From a virus (taxonomy: Duplodnaviria; Caudoviricetes): a stretch of DNA of 64,000 nucleotides. Under the pieces are notes generated by a model. The model saw nothing but the letters and a program-made list of their open reading frames with translations. It searched no databases and was not told the origin of the DNA. A program made the translations under genes and the position numbers. Positions within the stretch are counted from its first letter, which is position 1. Each line of letters begins with the position of its first letter. Of the stretch, positions 4,383 through 64,000 are shown one piece after another. Where the stretch lies: the IMG/VR virus record IMGVR_UViG_3300037478_000223, positions 1 through 64,000 of that record; one strand, given 5' to 3'.

Positions 4383-4423
4383 GGTGTTCCTCCGTGGTGT
4401 GTGTTCCCGACCTGACAACCACT

Positions 4424-4464
4424 ACGTTACACACTTTGCGGCGCGTGTGCAACTCGGACGTTGC
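4424..4464 (-). promoter_or_regulatory. operator-promoter unit
   Basis: GCAAC-TCGGAC-GTTGC 4449-4464; TTGCAC-N17-TAACGT on -. Confidence 0.9.
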
Positions 4465-10023: not shown

Positions 10024-10071
10024 TGCCGCGCCATCTGCCGCGCCATCTGATGCGCCATCTGATGCGCCAGG
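10024..10071. repeat. four 12-bp tandem repeats (core GCGCCATC)
   Basis: TGCCGCGCCATC x2, TGATGCGCCATC, TGATGCGCCAGG. Confidence 0.9.
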
Positions 10072-10277
10072 ATCATTCCACTATCTTCCTCGTGGAATCG
10101 GTATCCGCACCCGACATATGCACAACATACGTGTTGCGCCCGGTGCGGGATGAAAATAGAATGGGAGGCAACCCATCCACGACAGGAACGAGTCATGCCC
10201 AAGATCTACGTATGCCGCCGGTGCGGAAACGCCACCACCAACCCGTCCCGGTACTGCCCAGCCTGCCGGTATCGCAA

Positions 10278-10317
10278 GGGGGCCCTTGCACCATCCCACA
10301 ATGGTGCAAGGGCCCCC
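10278..10317. terminator. 17-bp-stem hairpin, likely terminator at end of traB
   Basis: GGGGGCCCTTGCACCAT / ATGGTGCAAGGGCCCCC, followed by CTTTT. Confidence 0.75.
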
Positions 10318-10340
10318 CTTTTCCCCCTCTGCCACACAGA

Positions 10341-12533
10341 CTACCGGCCACGTGCCCGATTCTGCGCGTCAACCACATCGGCGCGCTTGACGCCCTTGGT
10401 CGGTGCGACGTCACTACTGATCCGCACCGAACCCACCTTCACCCCGGCCTCACGGAACAACTGGCCCACGTCCCGCGCGCCACACTCACCCCACGAGCCT
10501 GGGTCATGCGCTCGCAGCAGCGAAGCCAGCTCGCCCAGCCCGGCAGACGGGCGAACCACAGTCCCGTCCAGCGGCCACACGTCCACCACCGCGTCCAGGA
10601 ACACACCAGACGTCCCGTCATCGTCGTCCGCCGGGACATCTCCGGCCGCCATCCCGGACAGCGTGCCAGCCTCACGCCGCATGGCCTCGATTTCCTTCAC
10701 CATCGCGTGCACGCTCGGCAAGTCCAGGTAGGACAGCTTCGTCTTGACCATCGAACCACCAGCGATCCCGATGAACGCGACACCCGGCGTGTCGATGTCC
10801 ACCGCACGGTAGCCCCGGCCGTGAGCATCGGACCCGAGCGCGATATTCGCGTCAGCGATGCTGTTCTGCGCGTGCCCGACGCGGTGCTTGCACCGGTCCA
10901 GGATCCGCGCCGGAACAGTGCCTTCCTTCGCGCCCTGGAACACGAGCCGGACCGTGATTCCGACCGAGCGAGCCGTCTGCACGACGTCCAACAAGCTGTC
11001 TTCGGCCTCGTTCGCGATCGGGGACAGGAACACACGCGGGACCTCGTCCAGCAGCACGAACACCGGCCGCATGTCCTGGCGATCCGCCAACGCGTCGGTC
11101 AGCTTCGAGTCCGGGCATTCCTCGAACGGAAGCGTCTCCAACACCTTGTTCCGCCGTGCGACCTCGGACCGGAGCCACTTCAACGTCCCCATGAACGCCT
11201 CCAGGTCCGCCGCGTCGCACCCGTTGCGCAAGGTGTGCGCGATCGGCGCGAACGCCTTGTAGTCCAGCCCACCCTTGAAGTTGTGGATGGCCAAGAGCGT
11301 TCGCGGGTCCATCGCGGCACCCAGGATCAGCAGCCGCGCGGTAGCCGACTTCCCGGAACCGACGTCGCCAGCAATCCCGCCGTTCGTCTCGAACAACGGC
11401 ACGATGACATCCCGACCCCGCGCGTCCACGCCGACCGGAACACCATCGAAGTACGAGCGCGAGCGCACCTGAGCCCACTTCCACGCCGGAGACGGCATGC
11501 GGGACAGCAGCCCGTCAGCAACGAACAGCTCGAACGCACCCGGCGACACGTCCGGCAACGGCTCCACCACCAGGCACTCAGCAGGCTTGCCCATCGCGGA
11601 CGCGAACCGGCCGTGACGCTTGATCAACTCAGCCGTCTCCAGTCCAGGAGCCATCCTCACCGTGAGCAACACGCCACCCTGCACGCGCTCACCAGACATC
11701 ACGCGCGACTTGGCACCGTGCAGGGCACCGAACCCGGACATGGCCAACGCGTTCTCCACGGTGGTGACCAACGCCTGATCCTCGTGAGACGACGGAGCCA
11801 GTTCCTTGGGATCCTTCGACCTGAACAGGTGAAACTTCCCCTGCACCGGATCCCCCTCCGGCATCTGCGCAGTCACGACCACCGGCCGCACCGACTCCAC
11901 AGCACCGGGACCGTCCGGCACGGGCGCTCGAAGATCTTCCGGCACCTCGGCACGTAACGGCCACGTGTTACGGCGCTCGCGGACGCCCGCGACGATGAAC
12001 ACGGTGACGGTTCCTGCGATCACGGCTGCCGGGACGGTCCCCCACTTGCCGTGTTCGGACCACATCCACGCCGCGAAGAACGGGGAGGCGACCACAGCCA
12101 GGCGCAGCAGCTTCCCGCGTCCCTTCCCGGCCGCGACCCAGTTCTTGGCTCGTACGGCGCTGACCTTCACCCCGAGGGCGAAGTACAGCGGCGCGCGCAC
12201 GATGTGGAATGCGGCGATACGGCCTGTGTATGCGGCGCGTGCCTTGAAGCCGCCACGGACACGCGGGATCGGGACCGGGCGCACGACGGGCGCGGGCTGC
12301 GGCGCGACAACTGCCCCGGCGGGAACCGTCTGCGCTGTGGCCGGTTCGACGACGGGCCCGTTGTCCGGCTCCGCGTCGCCGCTCGCTGTGTCGTTGCTGT
12401 CGAAGGTCTCTTCGATCCGGTCAAGCGAATCATCGGCTTCGAGCATGTCCAAGAGCCGTTCGTTCACCTCGTCAGCTTCGTAGCCGCTGAGCCGTTCGTG
12501 GTCGCCGTCGTCGTAGTGTGCATTGTCGGTCAT
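10341..12533 (-). CDS. traB: FtsK/SpoIIIE-family DNA translocase, actinomycete plasmid TraB-like
   Basis: N-terminal hydrophobic segments; Walker A GDVGSGKS; Walker B VFVLLDE; ARSVGI..RL..Q motif; C-terminal possible wHTH region; start placed at ATG after GGAAGG RBS. Confidence 0.8.
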   Translation of the reverse strand: MTDNAHYDDGDHERLSGYEADEVNERLLDMLEADDSLDRIEETFDSNDTASGDAEPDNGPVVEPATAQTVPAGAVVAPQPAPVVRPVPIPRVRGGFKARAAYTGRIAAFHIVRAPLYFALGVKVSAVRAKNWVAAGKGRGKLLRLAVVASPFFAAWMWSEHGKWGTVPAAVIAGTVTVFIVAGVRERRNTWPLRAEVPEDLRAPVPDGPGAVESVRPVVVTAQMPEGDPVQGKFHLFRSKDPKELAPSSHEDQALVTTVENALAMSGFGALHGAKSRVMSGERVQGGVLLTVRMAPGLETAELIKRHGRFASAMGKPAECLVVEPLPDVSPGAFELFVADGLLSRMPSPAWKWAQVRSRSYFDGVPVGVDARGRDVIVPLFETNGGIAGDVGSGKSATARLLILGAAMDPRTLLAIHNFKGGLDYKAFAPIAHTLRNGCDAADLEAFMGTLKWLRSEVARRNKVLETLPFEECPDSKLTDALADRQDMRPVFVLLDEVPRVFLSPIANEAEDSLLDVVQTARSVGITVRLVFQGAKEGTVPARILDRCKHRVGHAQNSIADANIALGSDAHGRGYRAVDIDTPGVAFIGIAGGSMVKTKLSYLDLPSVHAMVKEIEAMRREAGTLSGMAAGDVPADDDDGTSGVFLDAVVDVWPLDGTVVRPSAGLGELASLLRAHDPGSWGECGARDVGQLFREAGVKVGSVRISSDVAPTKGVKRADVVDAQNRARGR

Positions 12534-12630
12534 GGCGGGGGTTCCTTCCGGTGGGGGATGTGCGTCGGTCCCGCCGCGTGAGTGGTACGGCGGGACCGAC
12601 TGGAGGGGCAACAGGGGGTAGGCGCGCGTG

Positions 12631-13035
12631 TCAGGCGAACCCGAATGCGCCGATCGTGGAGTTGATCGCCAGCGGCAGCCACGACGTGATCAGCGGAGTT
12701 GTACCGACGATCATGCACGCGATCACCAGGGGCACAAGCTCACCCTTCTTGATGGTCTTGTCCCACAGGATGACGGCCAGGATCGCGGTCGCGATGGCCA
12801 GGACACCCACCGTGTAGGTCGCGCCTCCAGCCGTGGACGGGAACCCGAGCATGCCAGTGAACGCGTTGATGATGCCGTTGAGCATCGGGGCAAGGAACCC
12901 CTGAATCCTGGGGGCCGATCCGACGATCATCGACACGATGATCAGGATGTAGAGCGCCGCGCCGCTGGTCTTGTTGTGCCTGATCATGAAGATGAGCATG
13001 CCGACAGCGAACATGGCGACAAATGCGTCATACAT
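12631..13035 (-). CDS. multi-TM membrane protein, Tra/Spd-like
   Basis: About 4 hydrophobic helices; directly upstream of traB. Confidence 0.65.
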   Translation of the reverse strand: MYDAFVAMFAVGMLIFMIRHNKTSGAALYILIIVSMIVGSAPRIQGFLAPMLNGIINAFTGMLGFPSTAGGATYTVGVLAIATAILAVILWDKTIKKGELVPLVIACMIVGTTPLITSWLPLAINSTIGAFGFA

Positions 13036-13172
13036 GGGTGGTTGGTGCCTCTCTTGTTGGCTGTGAGGCAGCTAGGATGTGTCTGCCTCGTTGGTTGGGG
13101 TTGGGCTGTGACTGCTGTCTCCCGTCTTACTGGAGGGCGGGAGGCAGCGCGCTCGCGGTGCAGGGGGCTGGG

Positions 13173-13445
13173 TCAGTCCTCGCCGTGGAACTGCTTGTGG
13201 ATCTTCCGGGAGGCGATCACGCGCCGGACTTGCTGGGGTGTGAGTCCGAACATCTTGCCAATCTTCCCGGTCGTGAGGCCACCCTTCGAGGGGGTAGTTT
13301 CGTCACGGTCCTGGGTGTAGATCCGGTAGATCTCGGCATCACGTTCGGCCAGTGCCCGGCTGGACTCTTCACGCGCTTGGGTCAGCTTGACGGCCAGGGG
13401 GTGCAGCGCGGGTTCCTGCGGTTCCTCCTTCGAGTTTCGGGTCAT
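13173..13445 (-). CDS. small HTH transcriptional regulator (Kor-like candidate repressor)
   Basis: GLTTGKIGKMFGLTPQQVRRVIA helix-turn-helix; AGAAAGG RBS. Confidence 0.7.
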   Translation of the reverse strand: MTRNSKEEPQEPALHPLAVKLTQAREESSRALAERDAEIYRIYTQDRDETTPSKGGLTTGKIGKMFGLTPQQVRRVIASRKIHKQFHGED

Positions 13446-13471
13446 GGTTGCCTTTCTGGTGGACGAATATT

Positions 13472-13548
13472 GCAACGCCAATGTTGCCACACCACACACC
13501 CTTAATGCAACTAGAACGTTGCGCGCGCGTGGGTGCTTCCCGTACAGT
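13472..13548. promoter_or_regulatory. divergent control region with two perfect GCAAC-N6-GTTGC operators (13472-13487, 13507-13522)
   Basis: + promoter TTGCGC-N18-TACAGT; - promoter TTGCAT-N18-CAACAT bracketed by both operators. Confidence 0.8.
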
Positions 13549-13593: not shown

Positions 13594-14570
13594 ATGGGCA
13601 AGCTCATCGCCGCCATCATCCTTGGCGCTTTCCTGGGCGTCTTCGTCATGCTCGCCCTCGGGTACGACAAGACCCTTGCCGCCTCGTTCGCCCAGAACGC
13701 CCGCACTGTCTCGCACATCGTCGGCACCATGAACGACGCCACTGCCACGGGCGGGGGCGAGTGATGTTCGGCGGAGACGACCGCGTATCACGCACCCTGC
13801 GCCGCTTCATGCTCTGGGGCGTGCTGTCCCTGATCGCCTACCTGATCTTCTCCACCGAGGTCACAACGGTTCCCGGCAGCTTCGGGGACGTCCTGGAGAG
13901 CACATGGGTCCCGGTGCTGATCACCCTGACCATCGGGTTCATCCTGTTCGCCCCGGACAAGTGGGCCAAGGCCGTCAAGGGGTTCTTCGGCCTGGTCATC
14001 CTGTCCATCGTCCTGTACTGGATCCTGTTCTAGCCCATGGCGACGCATAGACGGTGGTGGAACACACCATTCGGAAACGGACCAATCACCGTGGCACTAT
14101 GGTGGCTGGCCTGGACACCACTGTTCGTCGGCGCGTGCGCTTACACGGCCGGACTCCTGGCCTGGTTCCTCGCTCAGCTCGTCGGGTGGGGAATCATCCA
14201 GATACTCACCACCGCACCCGCCACCTAGAGAGGGAACACCATGGACGCCAGCGACTTCGATCCGCGCAACCCCCGCGACGCCCGCGCGTTCGCGGAAGGA
14301 GTCATGGCAGCCCAACGCGATTCCCGGGCCCGGATCGAACAGCAGCAGCACCACACCGAACAGGCCGAAGAAGCCAAGCGGCATCTGGGATGGCTCGTGC
14401 TGTGCGCGATGCTCTTCCTCACTACCGCGTTCAACGCGGAGTCATGGGCGATCGGCCTCGCGTCGTTCGTGCTCGGACTCGGCATCGCGGGTGCTGTCGT
14501 CGCCAAGATCGTGTCGTGGCACAGGCACGCGACCGAAGCCAGGAACTACGAACCCGAGGCCGGAAAGTGA
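13594..14570 (+). CDS. four small membrane proteins (13594-13764, 13764-14033, 14037-14228, 14241-14570), Spd-like or holin-like
   Basis: Each has 1-2 hydrophobic helices; tightly packed, divergent from HTH/traB. Confidence 0.6.
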
Positions 14571-16448: not shown

Positions 16449-16519
16449 GGCGGGCCGTCCTTTCGTGGCTCCCAGTGGCTCCGGTGGAGCGCGTGGGCTG
16501 GGTGCCCCCGACAACGAGT

Positions 16520-16560
16520 ACGTTACACACTTCCTCGCGCGTGCGCAACATCAACGTTGC
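16520..16560 (-). promoter_or_regulatory. operator-promoter unit
   Basis: GCAAC-ATCAAC-GTTGC 16545-16560; TTGCGC-N17-TAACGT. Confidence 0.9.
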
Positions 16561-36393: not shown

Positions 36394-39300
36394 TGCTTGT
36401 TCTCCCTTGCTCGCCTGGTGCATTCGGCGGTCTTCCAGTGCAGTTCAACGGACGTCTGTGGCCCGCTGTAGTGGGTGCTGGCGAACTTCTTGCGGCATCG
36501 GGCGCATTCGGCCTGGTTCAGGCTTCGTGTGGGTGTGCCGGGTGGTGGCGGTGCGCCGTTCAGGGGTTCCGCGAGGTCGTACACGGTCACCTTGCGCCAG
36601 TTCGTCAGGCGTTCGTCATCCATGCCGGGGTGGAGACCTTCGGCGAGTTCGACCAGACTCGGAGATACCGGGTCGGGACGGATGGGCTTCACGAAGTAGT
36701 GCGGGCCCACGTGCTCCTGGTCTTCGTCGTCCCATTCGGCGCCGGATCGGCGGTTGAGCGTGTCCGCCAGTGTGTGTGCTTCGCCTTCGCCTTCGATGTC
36801 GGCAACGTGCCGGGACGGCTCCCACATGCCTGGACTGTGGTAGATGCCGTAGTAGCCCGTGTCGATCATCAGTAACCCGCCTGTGGGGGAAGGATGGCGT
36901 CGCGGTACTCGGCAGCGCTTTCGAGGTAGGGCCCGCGTTCTTCGGGTGTGGCGTCGTCCCAGGGGCGTGGGGTGAGGGCTTGTGCGCGCTGGTCCGTGTC
37001 CCACAGCGCTTCGGCTGTGTGGTCGTCTTTCAGTGCCGCTTTCAGGACGCTCTTGGCTAGGTATATGGCGTCTGCTTGGGACATCTCGCTATGTGACCAA
37101 ATGATGGTTGCCGCGCGCTTCACAGGCGTGGTCAGCTTGGCCTTGGCGATGCTGATGTTCGTCATGCGGTTGCTTCCTCGGGTTCAGGATCGGGGCCAGG
37201 TTCGTCCTTGGGTGGTTCGTCGGGGGCTTGGTAGGGCCAGGTGATGTAGGCGCGGGTTCCCCCGAGGGGGAGGCCGGACCTCATGTCAGCGGGTGCGTTC
37301 TCCAGGTGAAGGCGTGCGTGTCGGGGCGCGCCAGCCATGATCGCGCGTTCGACGAAGGGGGCGAGCTGGTCCAGGGGGATTCCCCTGCCGCGCCAGGTCT
37401 CGGCGTAGCTGCTGCTGTTGGGTGAGAGCGTCACGGGGTGTTCTCCTAGGTTTCGTTTCCGGTTGCGTACCAGTCGATGTCCAGTCCGAGCATTCGCCAT
37501 TGCCGGGTTGGTTCGGCTCCGAGGGGTCGCCACATGTTGCGGCAGGCTGTCAGACGCCATCGTTTGCCCGGCTCGCTCGGTCGCCAGTCGATGAAGACTT
37601 GCCCGCCCATGATCGCCAGGTGAAGGCGTCCGACGTGCAGGGTCCTGCCGTACTTCCTCATGTGGTGCACCTTGGGATGTGTCGGCATTTGTTGCTCTTG
37701 CTGCATTGCGGGTCCCATCTCCCGCGCCGGTAGTCCTCGCCGGTCACGTCGATGACGCGGCAGTCGGAGCAGCGGAAGCACACGAGCGTGACGATTCGGC
37801 GTCCGTCAAGCATGTCCGGGTCATGCGGCACGGAGATGTGTAGCCAGTCGTGATACGTGAGGCGACACCACAGGGACCTGATGCGTCGTCGGCGGAACTG
37901 CTTGTTGGTGAGCCGGGCAAGAACGGCCTTCTTCTGTTCGTCGTTGAGCGTCATGGGACCGGCTCGTTTCTCCACCCGAAGACGTCCGTCATGGGCATGC
38001 TCTCGACCGTGTAGCGGCACGTGGAGTGGTCGTAGGTGTAGACGCTCACGATGCCGTTCTCGACGCTGTCTTGGACGCTAGAGGCGTGGGGGAAGGTCCG
38101 TTCGGTTCCGTCTTCGAACTCAACGGTTACTGATGCCATGGGTCGGGCGTCTCCCGGGTGTGTGTTGGTGTTCACCTCTGGTGAGCGTAAACGCCGCGCC
38201 CCTGTGATGCAACGCGGGGGTTGCAGCACAGGGGCGCGGTGTCAGAACGGGCAAGCGGTGTAGTCGATATCCGGGCCGTCGCCGTTGTCTGGCTTGGGTG
38301 GGAAGGTGATCGTGAACGCTTCGGGGCGTAGCTTGGTGGGGTTCTCCGGGTGGGTGGCGACGAAGCAGTCACAGATGCTCTCAGGGCAGCGGGGGCCAGT
38401 CCCGCCGAGGCCGGGGCACAGGGTGTCATCACCGATCCCGCTACCCATCGTCGCCACCCTCGGGGACCGTGAGCACCGTGATCGGGAAGTACATCGTCAC
38501 GAGCCACTGTGACGCGGTGGTCGCAACACCGGGGCCGCCTTCGACTCTCCAGGCGTAGTGGCCACGGTTGGGCATCCGCTGCCACTGGTCACCATCCCTG
38601 TCCCGCACCACAGTGTTCACGGGAGCAGCGTCAAGGATGGCGGTGCTCGCAGCAACCCAGTCGTCTGCCGTGCCGGTGGGTTCAATGGTGTCGCCGGACT
38701 GGAGACGGCGGCCGTTCATGCGCTCTTCCGCACGTGAGGAACAGACACGACAGTCAGGGGTTCGGCCGTGGAAACGAGCCACAAGGAATCTCGTTCCACG
38801 CTTCCGCCGTTAAGGGCCCAGACAGATTTGGGCACACGTCGCCAGTTGTCGCCATCGCAGTCGCGCAGGAATGTTCCCATGGGGGCATCGTCCAGGGCGC
38901 TCGCGGCTTCGGTGCGGTCGTCGATGCTACTGGGGAAGCTCTCGGGTACGACGTCGCCAGGCTTGAGCGTCCAGGGGCCCGGTTCGGTGGGCTCTTGGCC
39001 GCTGAGGCGCTGCGCAGCGGCGTGGATGTCGATGGAGAGGGTAACGCCGGAGACGTCGCCGTTCATGTACCGGTCGTTTGCGGCGTTGACGTCTTCGGCG
39101 AATCGGGTCAGTGCGGCGAGTAGTTCAGCGTGGTTGTGGTCCAGGTGTGTCACGGGTTCTCCAGGGTGAGGCGCGTCCAGTGGATGACGTCCACCTTGCC
39201 GTCTGTGTGGCGTACGAAGGCTCCGCAGTCGGTGGCACAGATGCGGTTTCGGATCACCATGACGGACTCGCCGGTTTCAGCGATCCATACGGTCCGTCCT

Positions 39301-42275: not shown

Positions 42276-42316
42276 ATGTTACACACATGAACGGCCTACC
42301 GCAACATCAGCGTTGC
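42276..42316 (-). promoter_or_regulatory. operator-promoter unit embedded in 17-bp inverted repeat
   Basis: GCAAC-ATCAGC-GTTGC 42301-42316; TTGCGG-N17-TAACAT. Confidence 0.9.
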
Positions 42317-47824: not shown

Positions 47825-47876
47825 AACGCTTTAGGCCCCTTCCATGGTTGTGGTTGATGGTGTCCCGACAACATGT

Positions 47877-47917
47877 ACGTTACACGCCTGCCCGGTGTGG
47901 TGCAACGTTGCCGTTGC
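47877..47917 (-). promoter_or_regulatory. operator-promoter unit
   Basis: GCAAC-GTTGCC-GTTGC 47902-47917; TTGCAC-N17-TAACGT. Confidence 0.85.
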
Positions 47918-57956: not shown

Positions 57957-58370
57957 ATGGCGCAAGTGTCCATGTGGGACGGCAGAAAAGGCCGAAAACT
58001 GTTCTCCAAGTTCGACCTATCCCCGCCCGAGTGGCACCGGGATGCGGCCTGTGGACCCGACGACGCTGAGACATTTTCCCCGGCGGATACGGACACACGT
58101 GAGACCTTGCACGAAGAGATTGCACGCATCCGCAAGGCCAAGCAGATCTGCCGCGCCTGCCCGGTGGTGACCCAGTGCCTCACCGACGCCTACGAGAACG
58201 AGCACGAAGAAGGGATCTGGGGCGGGCAATCCGAGTACGAGCGTCCCTACACGGACAAGGCAGCCAAGTACAGGGCTAAGAAGGTCGATGGCGACTCGCG
58301 AGAGGTCCGCATCATGCGCGCGGTGCAGGCCGGGGACATCCTCGCCGCGTTCGCCGGAGGTGCCGCATGA
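57957..58370 (+). CDS. whiB: WhiB-family Fe-S transcription factor
   Basis: W...AAC...AK.IC..CPV..QC...GIWGG...ER. Confidence 0.9.
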   Translation: MAQVSMWDGRKGRKLFSKFDLSPPEWHRDAACGPDDAETFSPADTDTRETLHEEIARIRKAKQICRACPVVTQCLTDAYENEHEEGIWGGQSEYERPYTDKAAKYRAKKVDGDSREVRIMRAVQAGDILAAFAGGAA

Positions 58371-59336: not shown

Positions 59337-59391
59337 AGTGCTCACGAGGTCAGGGAAACAGTCCCCAACCCGAACAGACCAGGAGGTCACC
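59328..59391 (+). repeat. 64-bp promoter/leader/RBS segment identical to 63580-63643
   Basis: GTGTAACGTAGTGCTCACGAGGTCAGGGAAACAGTCCCCAACCCGAACAGACCAGGAGGTCACC in both; related copies at about 4880-4938 (-), 426-480 and 62736-62798. Confidence 0.9.
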
Positions 59392-60114
59392 ATGGACACC
59401 ACAACCAAGCAGCCCACCACCTTCACCCTCTGGGTTTCCGCCTACGGCGGGTGGAACTGGGACAAGACCACCGGATCTCAGGTCCGCGTCACGTTCGAGG
59501 GACCAAACGCCGACGCCATGGCGGCTGTCTACATCCGCGACCACGGTTACCTTGCCATCAGCGGCGACGACGGCAACGCCTGGGACAACTTCCCCCTCGC
59601 CACTGCCCAGCTCTACCCGTCATGCGTACACGGCATGTCTCTTTGGCTGTGCGCAGGCCCCGACCACTACCCGAACGACTTCAACTGATCCTGACAGGCA
59701 CTCTCACCCACGAGCGCCCCGGCGTTCCTGGGTGGGAGTGTCCGGCAGGACACCACCACCAACCCCATGAAAGGGAACACCATGACCACCACGACCGAAG
59801 CCGGAACCACCCTGACCGTGTTCGGCACCGACGTCACCGGGACCATCCTCGCCATCGTCGGGGACCACGCGGCAGACTTCGACCTCGAAGCCGCCGCGAA
59901 CGGCTACCGGGACTACCTCGCCGGGTTCCTTCCGGACGGCTACACCATCAGCGGCTACCAGGTCGTCAAGGACGTGGACGCGCCCCACCTGGACCGTGCC
60001 GCCCTCCGTGAGGCTGTAGCCGACGACACGGATGGCTTCGACATCAGCAAGTACGCCAAGCCCGATCCCACCACGCCTGTCACGGACGACCCGACCGGCG
60101 TCAAGAGCAGCTAG
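59392..60114 (+). CDS. two small cassette proteins (59392-59688, 59767-60114)
   Basis: RBS + ATG downstream of promoter unit. Confidence 0.65.
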
Positions 60115-63588: not shown

Positions 63589-63644
63589 AGTGCTCACGAG
63601 GTCAGGGAAACAGTCCCCAACCCGAACAGACCAGGAGGTCACCC

Positions 63645-64000
63645 GTGACCATCACGACCGGCTCCACCCACCTCATCGGCCCCAAGACCGCCACGGACCG
63701 CCTCTACCGCGTGACCGACGTCGAAGAGCGGCGCCCCTTCGGCGTCAAGCGGTACACGGCCGTCACGATCGTCCGCATCACCGATGACACCACATGGCAG
63801 GTGTACGTGAAGCCCGATGCGAAGCGGATCCCCTGGAACGCGCGCCTGATGAGCGTGACCACCAACGACGACCGACTCAAGGCGATCGAGACCGCGAAGG
63901 CCGAGAACCGCGCCGCGAAGTTCGACAAGCTCACCGACATCCTTGCCGGTACCGCCGAACAGGAGTTGCACGCCAGCTACCAGGAGGACATGCAGCCCGT
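63645..64000 (+). CDS. cassette protein, truncated by window end
   Basis: AGGAGG RBS + GTG; open to 64000. Confidence 0.65.
   Translation, partial: MTITTGSTHLIGPKTATDRLYRVTDVEERRPFGVKRYTAVTIVRITDDTTWQVYVKPDAKRIPWNARLMSVTTNDDRLKAIETAKAENRAAKFDKLTDILAGTAEQELHASYQEDMQP

Follow-up and report, generated by a model that had tools for sequence, protein, structure and literature searches.

The promoters of an uncultured actinomycete phage carry a palindrome, GCAAC-N6-GTTGC, one arm of which supplies the -35 box, and the best candidate for the protein binding this palindrome is P0001, an HTH protein of 90 residues encoded between one membrane-protein gene and a divergent group of four. Judging from sequence and structure models, P0001 is probably the binder. 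More tentatively, we favor a reading in which it would repress these promoters by occlusion of the -35 box, with negative autoregulation of its own gene.

The window analyzed here is a stretch of 64,000 nucleotides and represents the first 64 kb of an IMG/VR record of 73,146 bp rated complete by CheckV; positions beyond it are given as genome positions. The genome (64% GC) is of siphovirus type and stems from an uncultured soil or sediment actinomycete phage with genes for portal, capsid, tape measure, TerL, ERF, RusA, WhiB, and a replication initiator. Its capsid protein is at most about 31% identical to that of any isolated phage, the nearest being Gordonia, Microbacterium, and Arthrobacter phages, and many sediment and soil metagenomes carry near-identical DNA and variants diverged by about 5%. 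The record ends (genome 1-45 and 73100-73146) have an imperfect direct repeat of about 45 bp in common, TCCGGCGTCGTCGGGGCCG[A/G]AGCTTCCCGCGCTGACCGGGGCG. By Pfam, no integrase family was detected in any ORF scanned, and other lysogeny genes were likewise not found; a plasmid-like state is left possible by TraB-like and Spd-like genes.

The palindrome GCAAC-N6-GTTGC was found in 16 copies in the window compared to 0.11 expected, and none of 100 shuffled windows contained more than one copy. In the whole 73,146-bp genome, 18 copies are present compared to 0.16 expected. Among all 5-Nx-5 palindromes with spacers of 0-12, it was the only one at the report threshold of six copies used in our script. 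A literature search on the motif string gave no match, and the exact cassette pattern described below was absent from IMG/VR. A looser version of the pattern was found there in one 98-kb virus with a single site, which was taken as chance. In metagenome contigs, the cassette pattern was present in four, which is about the chance expectation. Three of these four contigs represent one conserved, bacterial-looking promoter region unrelated to the phage (L010:470-520, L011:244-294, and L013, minus strand, 974-1024), reading nnAAC-AAAGGG-GTTGCGC-N15-GTGTAACGTAG followed by TCCTCAC..GAGGAGG; this region may be a chance match or a host promoter type imitated by the phage cassettes.

Alignment of 21 canonical cassettes revealed the right arm GTTGC in all of them, ending exactly 16 nt before GTGTAACGTAG. 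The promoter unit is nnAAC-N6-G[TTGCnn]-N17-[TAACGT], with the -35 supplied by the right arm, and by its sequence it is a sigma-A-type promoter, TTGCnn-N17-TAACGT. With the -10 box placed at -12 to -7, the palindrome would extend from about -47 to -32. An ECF-type reading of the cassette, with AAC as -35 and CGT as -10, was ruled out by the spacing of 33 nt. The left arm AAC was kept in 21 of 21 cassettes while N6 and the upstream flank had diverged without conservation, which indicates separate selection on the left arm. The C at position 6 of the -35 hexamer is conserved asymmetrically, and hardly any variation was found in the -10 region of the cassettes; thus, sigma appears to read these promoters directly, and a protein bound to GTTGC would therefore occlude the -35. 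With degenerate -10 boxes (TACGCT, TACTGT, TAGAAT, and TAACAT) admitted, there are 28 units per genome, 25 of them within the window. They precede early-looking small genes, the replication region (47902), the Spd-like gene, and the capsid-tail operon (35954).

The cassettes have clearly been copied, as their leaders are near-identical, and two leader types, A and B, are reused before unrelated genes. The B-type cassettes (4432, 16528, and 47885 on the minus strand and 69003 on the plus strand) have a weaker second palindrome, GTAAC-N6-GTTGT, over -10/+1. It lies 34 bp from the main one, compared to 35 bp at the HTH gene:

4415-4430, 16511-16526, 47868-47883, and genome 69005-69020: second palindromes of the B-type cassettes, N6 varying and GTTGT kept

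The A-type leaders (e.g. 59350-59400, 63600-63650; genome 66335-66385) contain a small hairpin with a compensatory change, GGGAAACAGTCCC versus GGGGAACGGCCCC, which precedes the common AGGAGG ribosome-binding site. The unit in 10122-10731 has the best -10 of the genome (ACAAC-N6-GTTGC, TTGCGC-N17-TAGAAT) and drives a plus-strand ORF that begins at 10195, encodes a Cys4 zinc-ribbon-like N-terminus, and extends in antisense orientation into the FtsK-like gene at its 3′ end. A short distance upstream of this unit, at 10027-10069, the 12-bp tandem repeat CGCGCCATCTGA is present 3.6 times.

Palindromes can also top hairpins, and a general hairpin or terminator role was considered. However, long hairpins were found at only three of about 28 sites (1503-1518, 38209-38224, and 42301-42316), with 10-12 extra bp and sequences differing by site, against a background chance of 0.006 for at least 8 pairs out of 12. 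In these three, a terminator of the preceding gene seems to have been joined to the operator and -35 box of the promoter that follows. As the other approximately 25 sites are without stem extension, a general role of this kind was ruled out; what the sites have in common is not the hairpin, and they are most simply read as targets in duplex DNA for a symmetric dimer.

The original prediction had pointed to the divergent region between the HTH gene and the membrane genes as the only place with two perfect operators close together, 35 bp apart, one of them covering the -10-like CAACAT of the HTH gene. This description was confirmed by the following features of the region and its flanks:

13472-13487: O2, perfect palindrome GCAACGCCAATGTTGC over the putative -10 and +1 of the HTH-gene promoter
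13507-13522: O1, perfect palindrome GCAACTAGAACGTTGC, the arms of which give the -35 of both divergent promoters
13510-13505, minus strand: -35 TTGCAT of the HTH-gene promoter, formed by O1 and followed by 18 nt and then CAACAT
13486-13481, minus strand: putative -10 CAACAT of the HTH-gene promoter, inside O2, with a putative +1 at about 13474
13519-13524, plus strand: -35 TTGCGC of the plus-strand promoter, formed by O1
13543-13548, plus strand: putative -10 TACAGT of the plus-strand promoter, N18 after TTGCGC
13451-13456, minus strand: Shine-Dalgarno GAAAGG as read from the sequence, 5 nt before the ATG at 13445
13173-13445, minus strand: gene for P0001 (HTH protein, 90 aa), from translation
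13594-13764, 13764-14033, 14037-14228, and 14241-14570, plus strand: four divergent genes for small membrane proteins, the first of 56 aa
12631-13035, minus strand: gene for a 134-aa multi-pass membrane protein, downstream of the HTH gene
10341-12611, minus strand: gene for a TraB-like FtsK/SpoIIIE-type ATPase (Pfam FtsK_SpoIIIE, E = 5.4e-9), last gene of the presumed operon

The two perfect sites are 35 bp apart from start to start and separated by a gap of 19 bp; every other pair of perfect sites in the genome is at least about 500 bp apart. Under random spread, two of 18 sites fall within 35 bp with a chance of about 0.15, which is not rare alone, and the pair is therefore noteworthy because of its positions relative to the two promoters and not because of closeness itself. 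O2 is the only copy of the palindrome in the genome outside the -35 position and the only one over a -10/+1. Relative to the HTH-gene promoter, it extends from about -13 to +3, a location suited to a repressor. Among the units, an 18-nt spacer occurs only in these two divergent promoters. On the minus strand, TTGCAT-N18-CAACAT is preceded by the GTG of the cassette and followed by a B-type-like leader ending with GAAAGG-N5-ATG, and on the plus strand the leader from TACAGT to the ATG at 13594 also resembles those of B-type cassettes. The HTH-gene promoter resembles a cassette whose second site became perfect at the expense of its -10 (TAACGT to CAACAT).

The gene for the 134-aa membrane protein is probably located on the transcript of the HTH gene, as suggested by the sequence of the 137-bp gap between them (13036-13172), in which no palindrome unit or -35-like TTGC was found. 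Two hairpins are located in the gap, neither with a U tract (z = -1.5, not significant). It is plausible that the traB transcript starts with the HTH gene. The best plasmid matches of the FtsK-like protein were FtsK/TraB proteins of small Pseudonocardia and Streptomyces plasmids (25-28% identity), and a search of IMG/VR revealed no close relative of it. Upstream of the nearest plasmid FtsK/TraB genes there is a small non-HTH ORF unrelated to P0001 and then a DUF2637 gene. In the soil and sediment variants diverged by about 5%, about 24 of the listed differences are located in the HTH gene (13173-13365, 193 bp) and none of them in the adjoining membrane-protein gene (12821-13058 compared), which marks the HTH gene as a hot spot of variation.

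P0001 is a near-orphan with six matches among 1.8 billion cluster representatives. True homologues make up three clusters with 86%, 66%, and 39% identity, the 66% one being P0006, and the start methionine of P0001 is the same in three independently called homologues. No relatives were found in GenBank phages, IMG/VR, or JGI contigs, no homologue in 185,579 GTDB species genomes or, by tblastn, in 72,556 plasmids, and no paralogue in the phage genome. The family-invariant residues are concentrated in the HTH (T58, T59, G60, G63, F66, T69, Q71, Q72, V73, R74, R75, A78, K81, and I82). In the AlphaFold2 model (pLDDT 79.5), a helix of residues 16-48 is followed by a loop and a C-terminal HTH (59-66 and 70-86).

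Against Pfam and PHROG, P0001 matched no family at E ≤ 0.01; its own best values for sigma region 4 were E = 0.018-0.13. Every sigma-region-4 match of the family is below curated cut-offs, including those of P0006 to Pfam Sigma70_r4 (PF04545; 19.6 bits, cut-off 24.1; E = 6.6e-4) and to NCBIfam sigma70-ECF TIGR02937 (26.8 bits, cut-off 42.9; E = 3.3e-6), the latter covering the sigma4 part only (positions 96-155 of 165). Also, P0006 gave a sub-threshold match to a PHROG sigma factor family (E = 0.004) and a full-domain alignment with PDB entries for RpoD/SigA region 4 (S. aureus and B. subtilis sigma-A; E = 0.025). With both models, the top rows of Foldseek were sigma-A chains and region-4 fragments on -35 DNA, without significance. 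For the C-terminal 60 aa, they included 4xln_F (probability 0.94, TMq 0.67, rmsd 3.0) and 1ku7_A, region 4 on -35 DNA (probability 0.82, TMq 0.64), each with E of about 1 and all matches with E > 0.1. With the full model, VIA-align matched nothing but coiled coils resembling the long helix (Z ≤ 4.3), and a PDB profile search with the four-sequence alignment gave nothing below E = 0.2. Taken from these profiles and models, P0001 looks like a free-standing protein similar to sigma-70 region 4. The invariant R74 pairs with an arginine that we take to be R588 of E. coli sigma-70, the reader of G in TTGACA. Another arginine, presumably R584, which reads -35 position 5, is replaced in the P0001 family; position 5 is outside the palindrome. 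P0001 would have the three-helix HTH of region 4 (PF04545), the domain by which primary sigma factors read the -35 hexamer TTGACA, as well as a half-site containing TTGC and an invariant arginine at the G-reading position. Unlike region 4, it is a free-standing 90-aa protein without regions 2 or 3, has an N-terminal antiparallel dimerization helix in the models, and would bind an inverted pair of half-sites. A split phage sigma factor was ruled out, as no Sigma70_r2 or other sigma part is present in 62 further ORFs.

The homodimer model of P0001 obtained a score of 0.63 compared to 0.00 for the best of three controls; among proteins solved as one-chain pairs, 20 of 30 attained the dimer mark, as did 1 of 23 solved as single chains. 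At least 95% of the contacts agreed between runs, and the pLDDT of the partner was at least 76. The predicted interface is an antiparallel pairing of residues 12-38 in the N-terminal helices, which would provide the two-fold symmetry required by the palindrome.

P0001 is assigned as the probable binder because its HTH resembles sigma region 4, a symmetric dimer is predicted for it, and the half-site GTTGC contains the -35-like TTGC. In addition, its gene is the only one for an HTH-type candidate identified outside a standard promoter cassette and the only one with the palindrome over its own -10/+1. We propose that a P0001 dimer would recognize GCAAC-N6-GTTGC as an inverted pair of -35-like TTGC half-sites spaced by one helical turn. 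The promoter-proximal one of the pair is itself the -35 (TTGCnn) of about 28 phage promoters. Bound P0001 would therefore compete with region 4 of the host primary sigma, and the promoters would be turned down. As O2 lies over its own -10/+1, P0001 would limit its own synthesis, and its binding would also limit the downstream membrane and FtsK-like genes and the divergent membrane genes. Putative operators are present at 28 promoter units, including those of the capsid operon and the replication region, with two at the P0001 gene.

Repression is favored by the location of O2 and the weak second sites of the B-type cassettes in repressor positions, and the near-invariant -10 region suggests self-sufficient promoters. 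An awkward point for a repressor is that its own promoter would be the most tightly repressed of the regulon, which is hard to reconcile with targets of a single site being silenced stably, although the layout at E. coli lexA is the same. Also weighing against a global repressor, all promoter classes carry the site, the capsid operon included, and no lysogeny gene was found by Pfam in the ORFs scanned. The original prediction had gone further and named P0001 a candidate master repressor; its part as the most plausible binder of the palindrome was supported. As to the sign of the regulation, repression is preferred here only tentatively, and the site geometry (5-N6-5 at about -40) equals that of the Mu activator Mor. 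The added proposal of an immunity repressor with zygotic induction was not supported and is conjectural, given the Pfam result for integrase and lysogeny genes and the lack of a P0001 homologue in the species genomes searched.

Rather unlikely in our estimate is a reading in which P0001, while bound to the palindrome, serves as a class-II-type activator at the -40 sites, either recruiting RNA polymerase or replacing the contact of sigma region 4, and represses only its own promoter through O2, as lambda CI does at PRM. The combination of one activating and one autorepressing site is a known homeostatic design. A site common to all gene classes would suit a general activator, and the agreement of the cassette -35 with TTGACA at only three of six positions also speaks for this reading; yet the strong conservation of the -10 suggests promoters needing no activator, and the own promoter of the activator would have the weakest -10 (CAACAT). 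A functional parallel is Mu Mor, which recognizes two 5-bp inverted repeats in a 16-bp element (5-N6-5) from -51 to -36, centered at -43.5, that replaces the -35 (PMC4390567). Mor and C are small phage proteins with N-terminal dimerization and a C-terminal HTH, and several phage promoters are targeted by them (PMC4390567; bioRxiv 10.1101/2025.05.02.651988). The 5-N6-5 target in a 16-bp element at the -35 region is shared by P0001 as candidate binder, and a dimerizing N-terminal helix with a C-terminal HTH is predicted for P0001. In a structural search of the ESM Atlas, a Mor-family cluster (PF08765) was ranked first (TM 0.65/0.60 over 66 residues), Mu C was present in both Foldseek lists, and a PHROG 'late transcriptional activator' matched P0006 with E = 0.048. 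On the other hand, hhalign gave probabilities of only 1.5% against Mu Mor and 0.8% against C, there was no Pfam Mor match and no significant sequence or profile similarity, and the linker of the model contains no beta-strand. The center of the palindrome, near -40 instead of -43.5, is about 4 bp nearer to the -10 than that of Mor, the palindrome overlaps the TTGC itself, and about 28 target sites compare to 1-4 for Mor/C. Since the profile comparison with Mor and C was negative, the likeness would be one in working and not in family membership.

The CII proteins of lambda and P22 can be placed beside Mor under the activator reading, as the promoters targeted by CII have TTGC half-sites for it with N6 spacing (TTGC-N6-TTGC) in the -35 region (PMC2629481). 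Like P0001, CII is a small phage HTH protein; unlike the inverted half-sites here, however, CII sites are direct repeats flanking the -35, and no sequence match was found. CII has about 90-100 aa and is an establishment activator of few promoters.

Rather unlikely as well is a different binder, namely a host regulator or a phage protein such as the XRE-like one (genome 64880-65395), with P0001 being only a local regulator of the FtsK-like operon or having another role. The identity of P0001 as binder is derived from position and fold class only, operators can serve a regulator encoded elsewhere, and the phage does encode WhiB, the XRE-like protein (HTH_31, E = 7e-4), a replication initiator, the FtsK-like protein, and a Spd-like protein. 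However, the genes for WhiB and the XRE-like protein are located inside ordinary cassette operons with no special arrangement of sites, 62 further ORFs contained no Sigma70 or additional HTH family, and none of the other candidates is sigma-region-4-like, whereas the half-site is -35-like. WhiB proteins bind sigma and are not known to bind palindromes.

Very improbable, finally, is the lack of any dedicated binder, with the left arm left over from divergent -35 boxes that once stood back to back, or the palindrome acting as a hairpin (terminator) that was copied as part of the cassette, since AAC is retained in all 21 cassettes despite diverged N6 and flanks, most units have no -10 on the opposite strand, and stem extension is missing at about 25 of 28 sites, although O1 does serve two divergent promoters, the sites at 1503, 38209, and 42301 do top hairpins with 10-12 extra pairs, and the cassettes were copied with near-identical leaders.

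If P0001 does bind and repress as we prefer, its regulon would invite comparison with those of P1 C1, gp71 of mycobacteriophage L5 with its 'stoperators', and c of Streptomyces phage phiC31 with its conserved inverted repeats, all of them repressors with many dispersed operators. Shared features are a short operator present about 15-30 times, in intergenic positions at promoters and including the gene of the regulator. In contrast, those phages have been shown to be temperate and use repressors of other families, and the operators of L5 and P1 are asymmetric. In the present phage, the operator and the -35 of every promoter are joined in one fixed register. The Kor/TraR regulators of Streptomyces conjugative plasmids belong to the GntR family, with a winged-helix and an effector domain in about 240 aa. 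Aca proteins are encoded in an acr operon, the only one under their control, and repress it through inverted repeats in its promoter. Control of the own promoter by inverted repeats, putative for P0001, is common to Kor/TraR, Aca, and the layout here, and a TraB-type gene lies nearby in the case of both Kor/TraR and P0001. However, P0001 is 90 aa long, and a search down to E ≤ 10 gave no match to GntR; Aca shares only the twin-repeat layout at the own promoter, the candidate regulon of P0001 being genome-wide. The suggestion of a plasmid-derived, Kor-like protein is therefore not supported: neither a homologue in the 72,556 plasmids nor a GntR domain was found, and HTH proteins are not encoded by the ORFs that precede the plasmid genes.

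The Foldseek list also included solved complexes of WhiB proteins on sigma-A region 4 (8d5v, 8cyf, and 7kug), and the phage itself has a WhiB gene:

57957-58370: WhiB gene (Pfam E = 1.4e-18)

Because WhiB proteins dock on sigma-A region 4 in these complexes, the phage WhiB could be a partner of P0001, and by analogy a WhiB-P0001 contact is conceivable. It is a distinctly doubtful but far-reaching idea that P0001 represents a new class of transcription factor, in which a detached and dimerized sigma region 4 on inverted -35 boxes controls every promoter of the phage by competing with, or replacing, host sigma region 4 on RNA polymerase. Should P0001 be the binder, its mechanism, in which a free dimer similar to sigma region 4 reads half-sites resembling a -35, would be without a match among the curated families searched.

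As the system is compact, with one 16-bp operator in fixed register, one promoter type, and one small protein, it is directly testable, and the palindrome together with P0001 could possibly be useful as a portable switch for high-GC Gram-positive hosts. For the phage, binding by P0001 would mean that one 90-residue protein sets the output of essentially all promoters of a 73-kb genome that also carries a TraB-type DNA translocase. If true, this would show a coupling of the transfer-like genes of the phage to the rest of its program.
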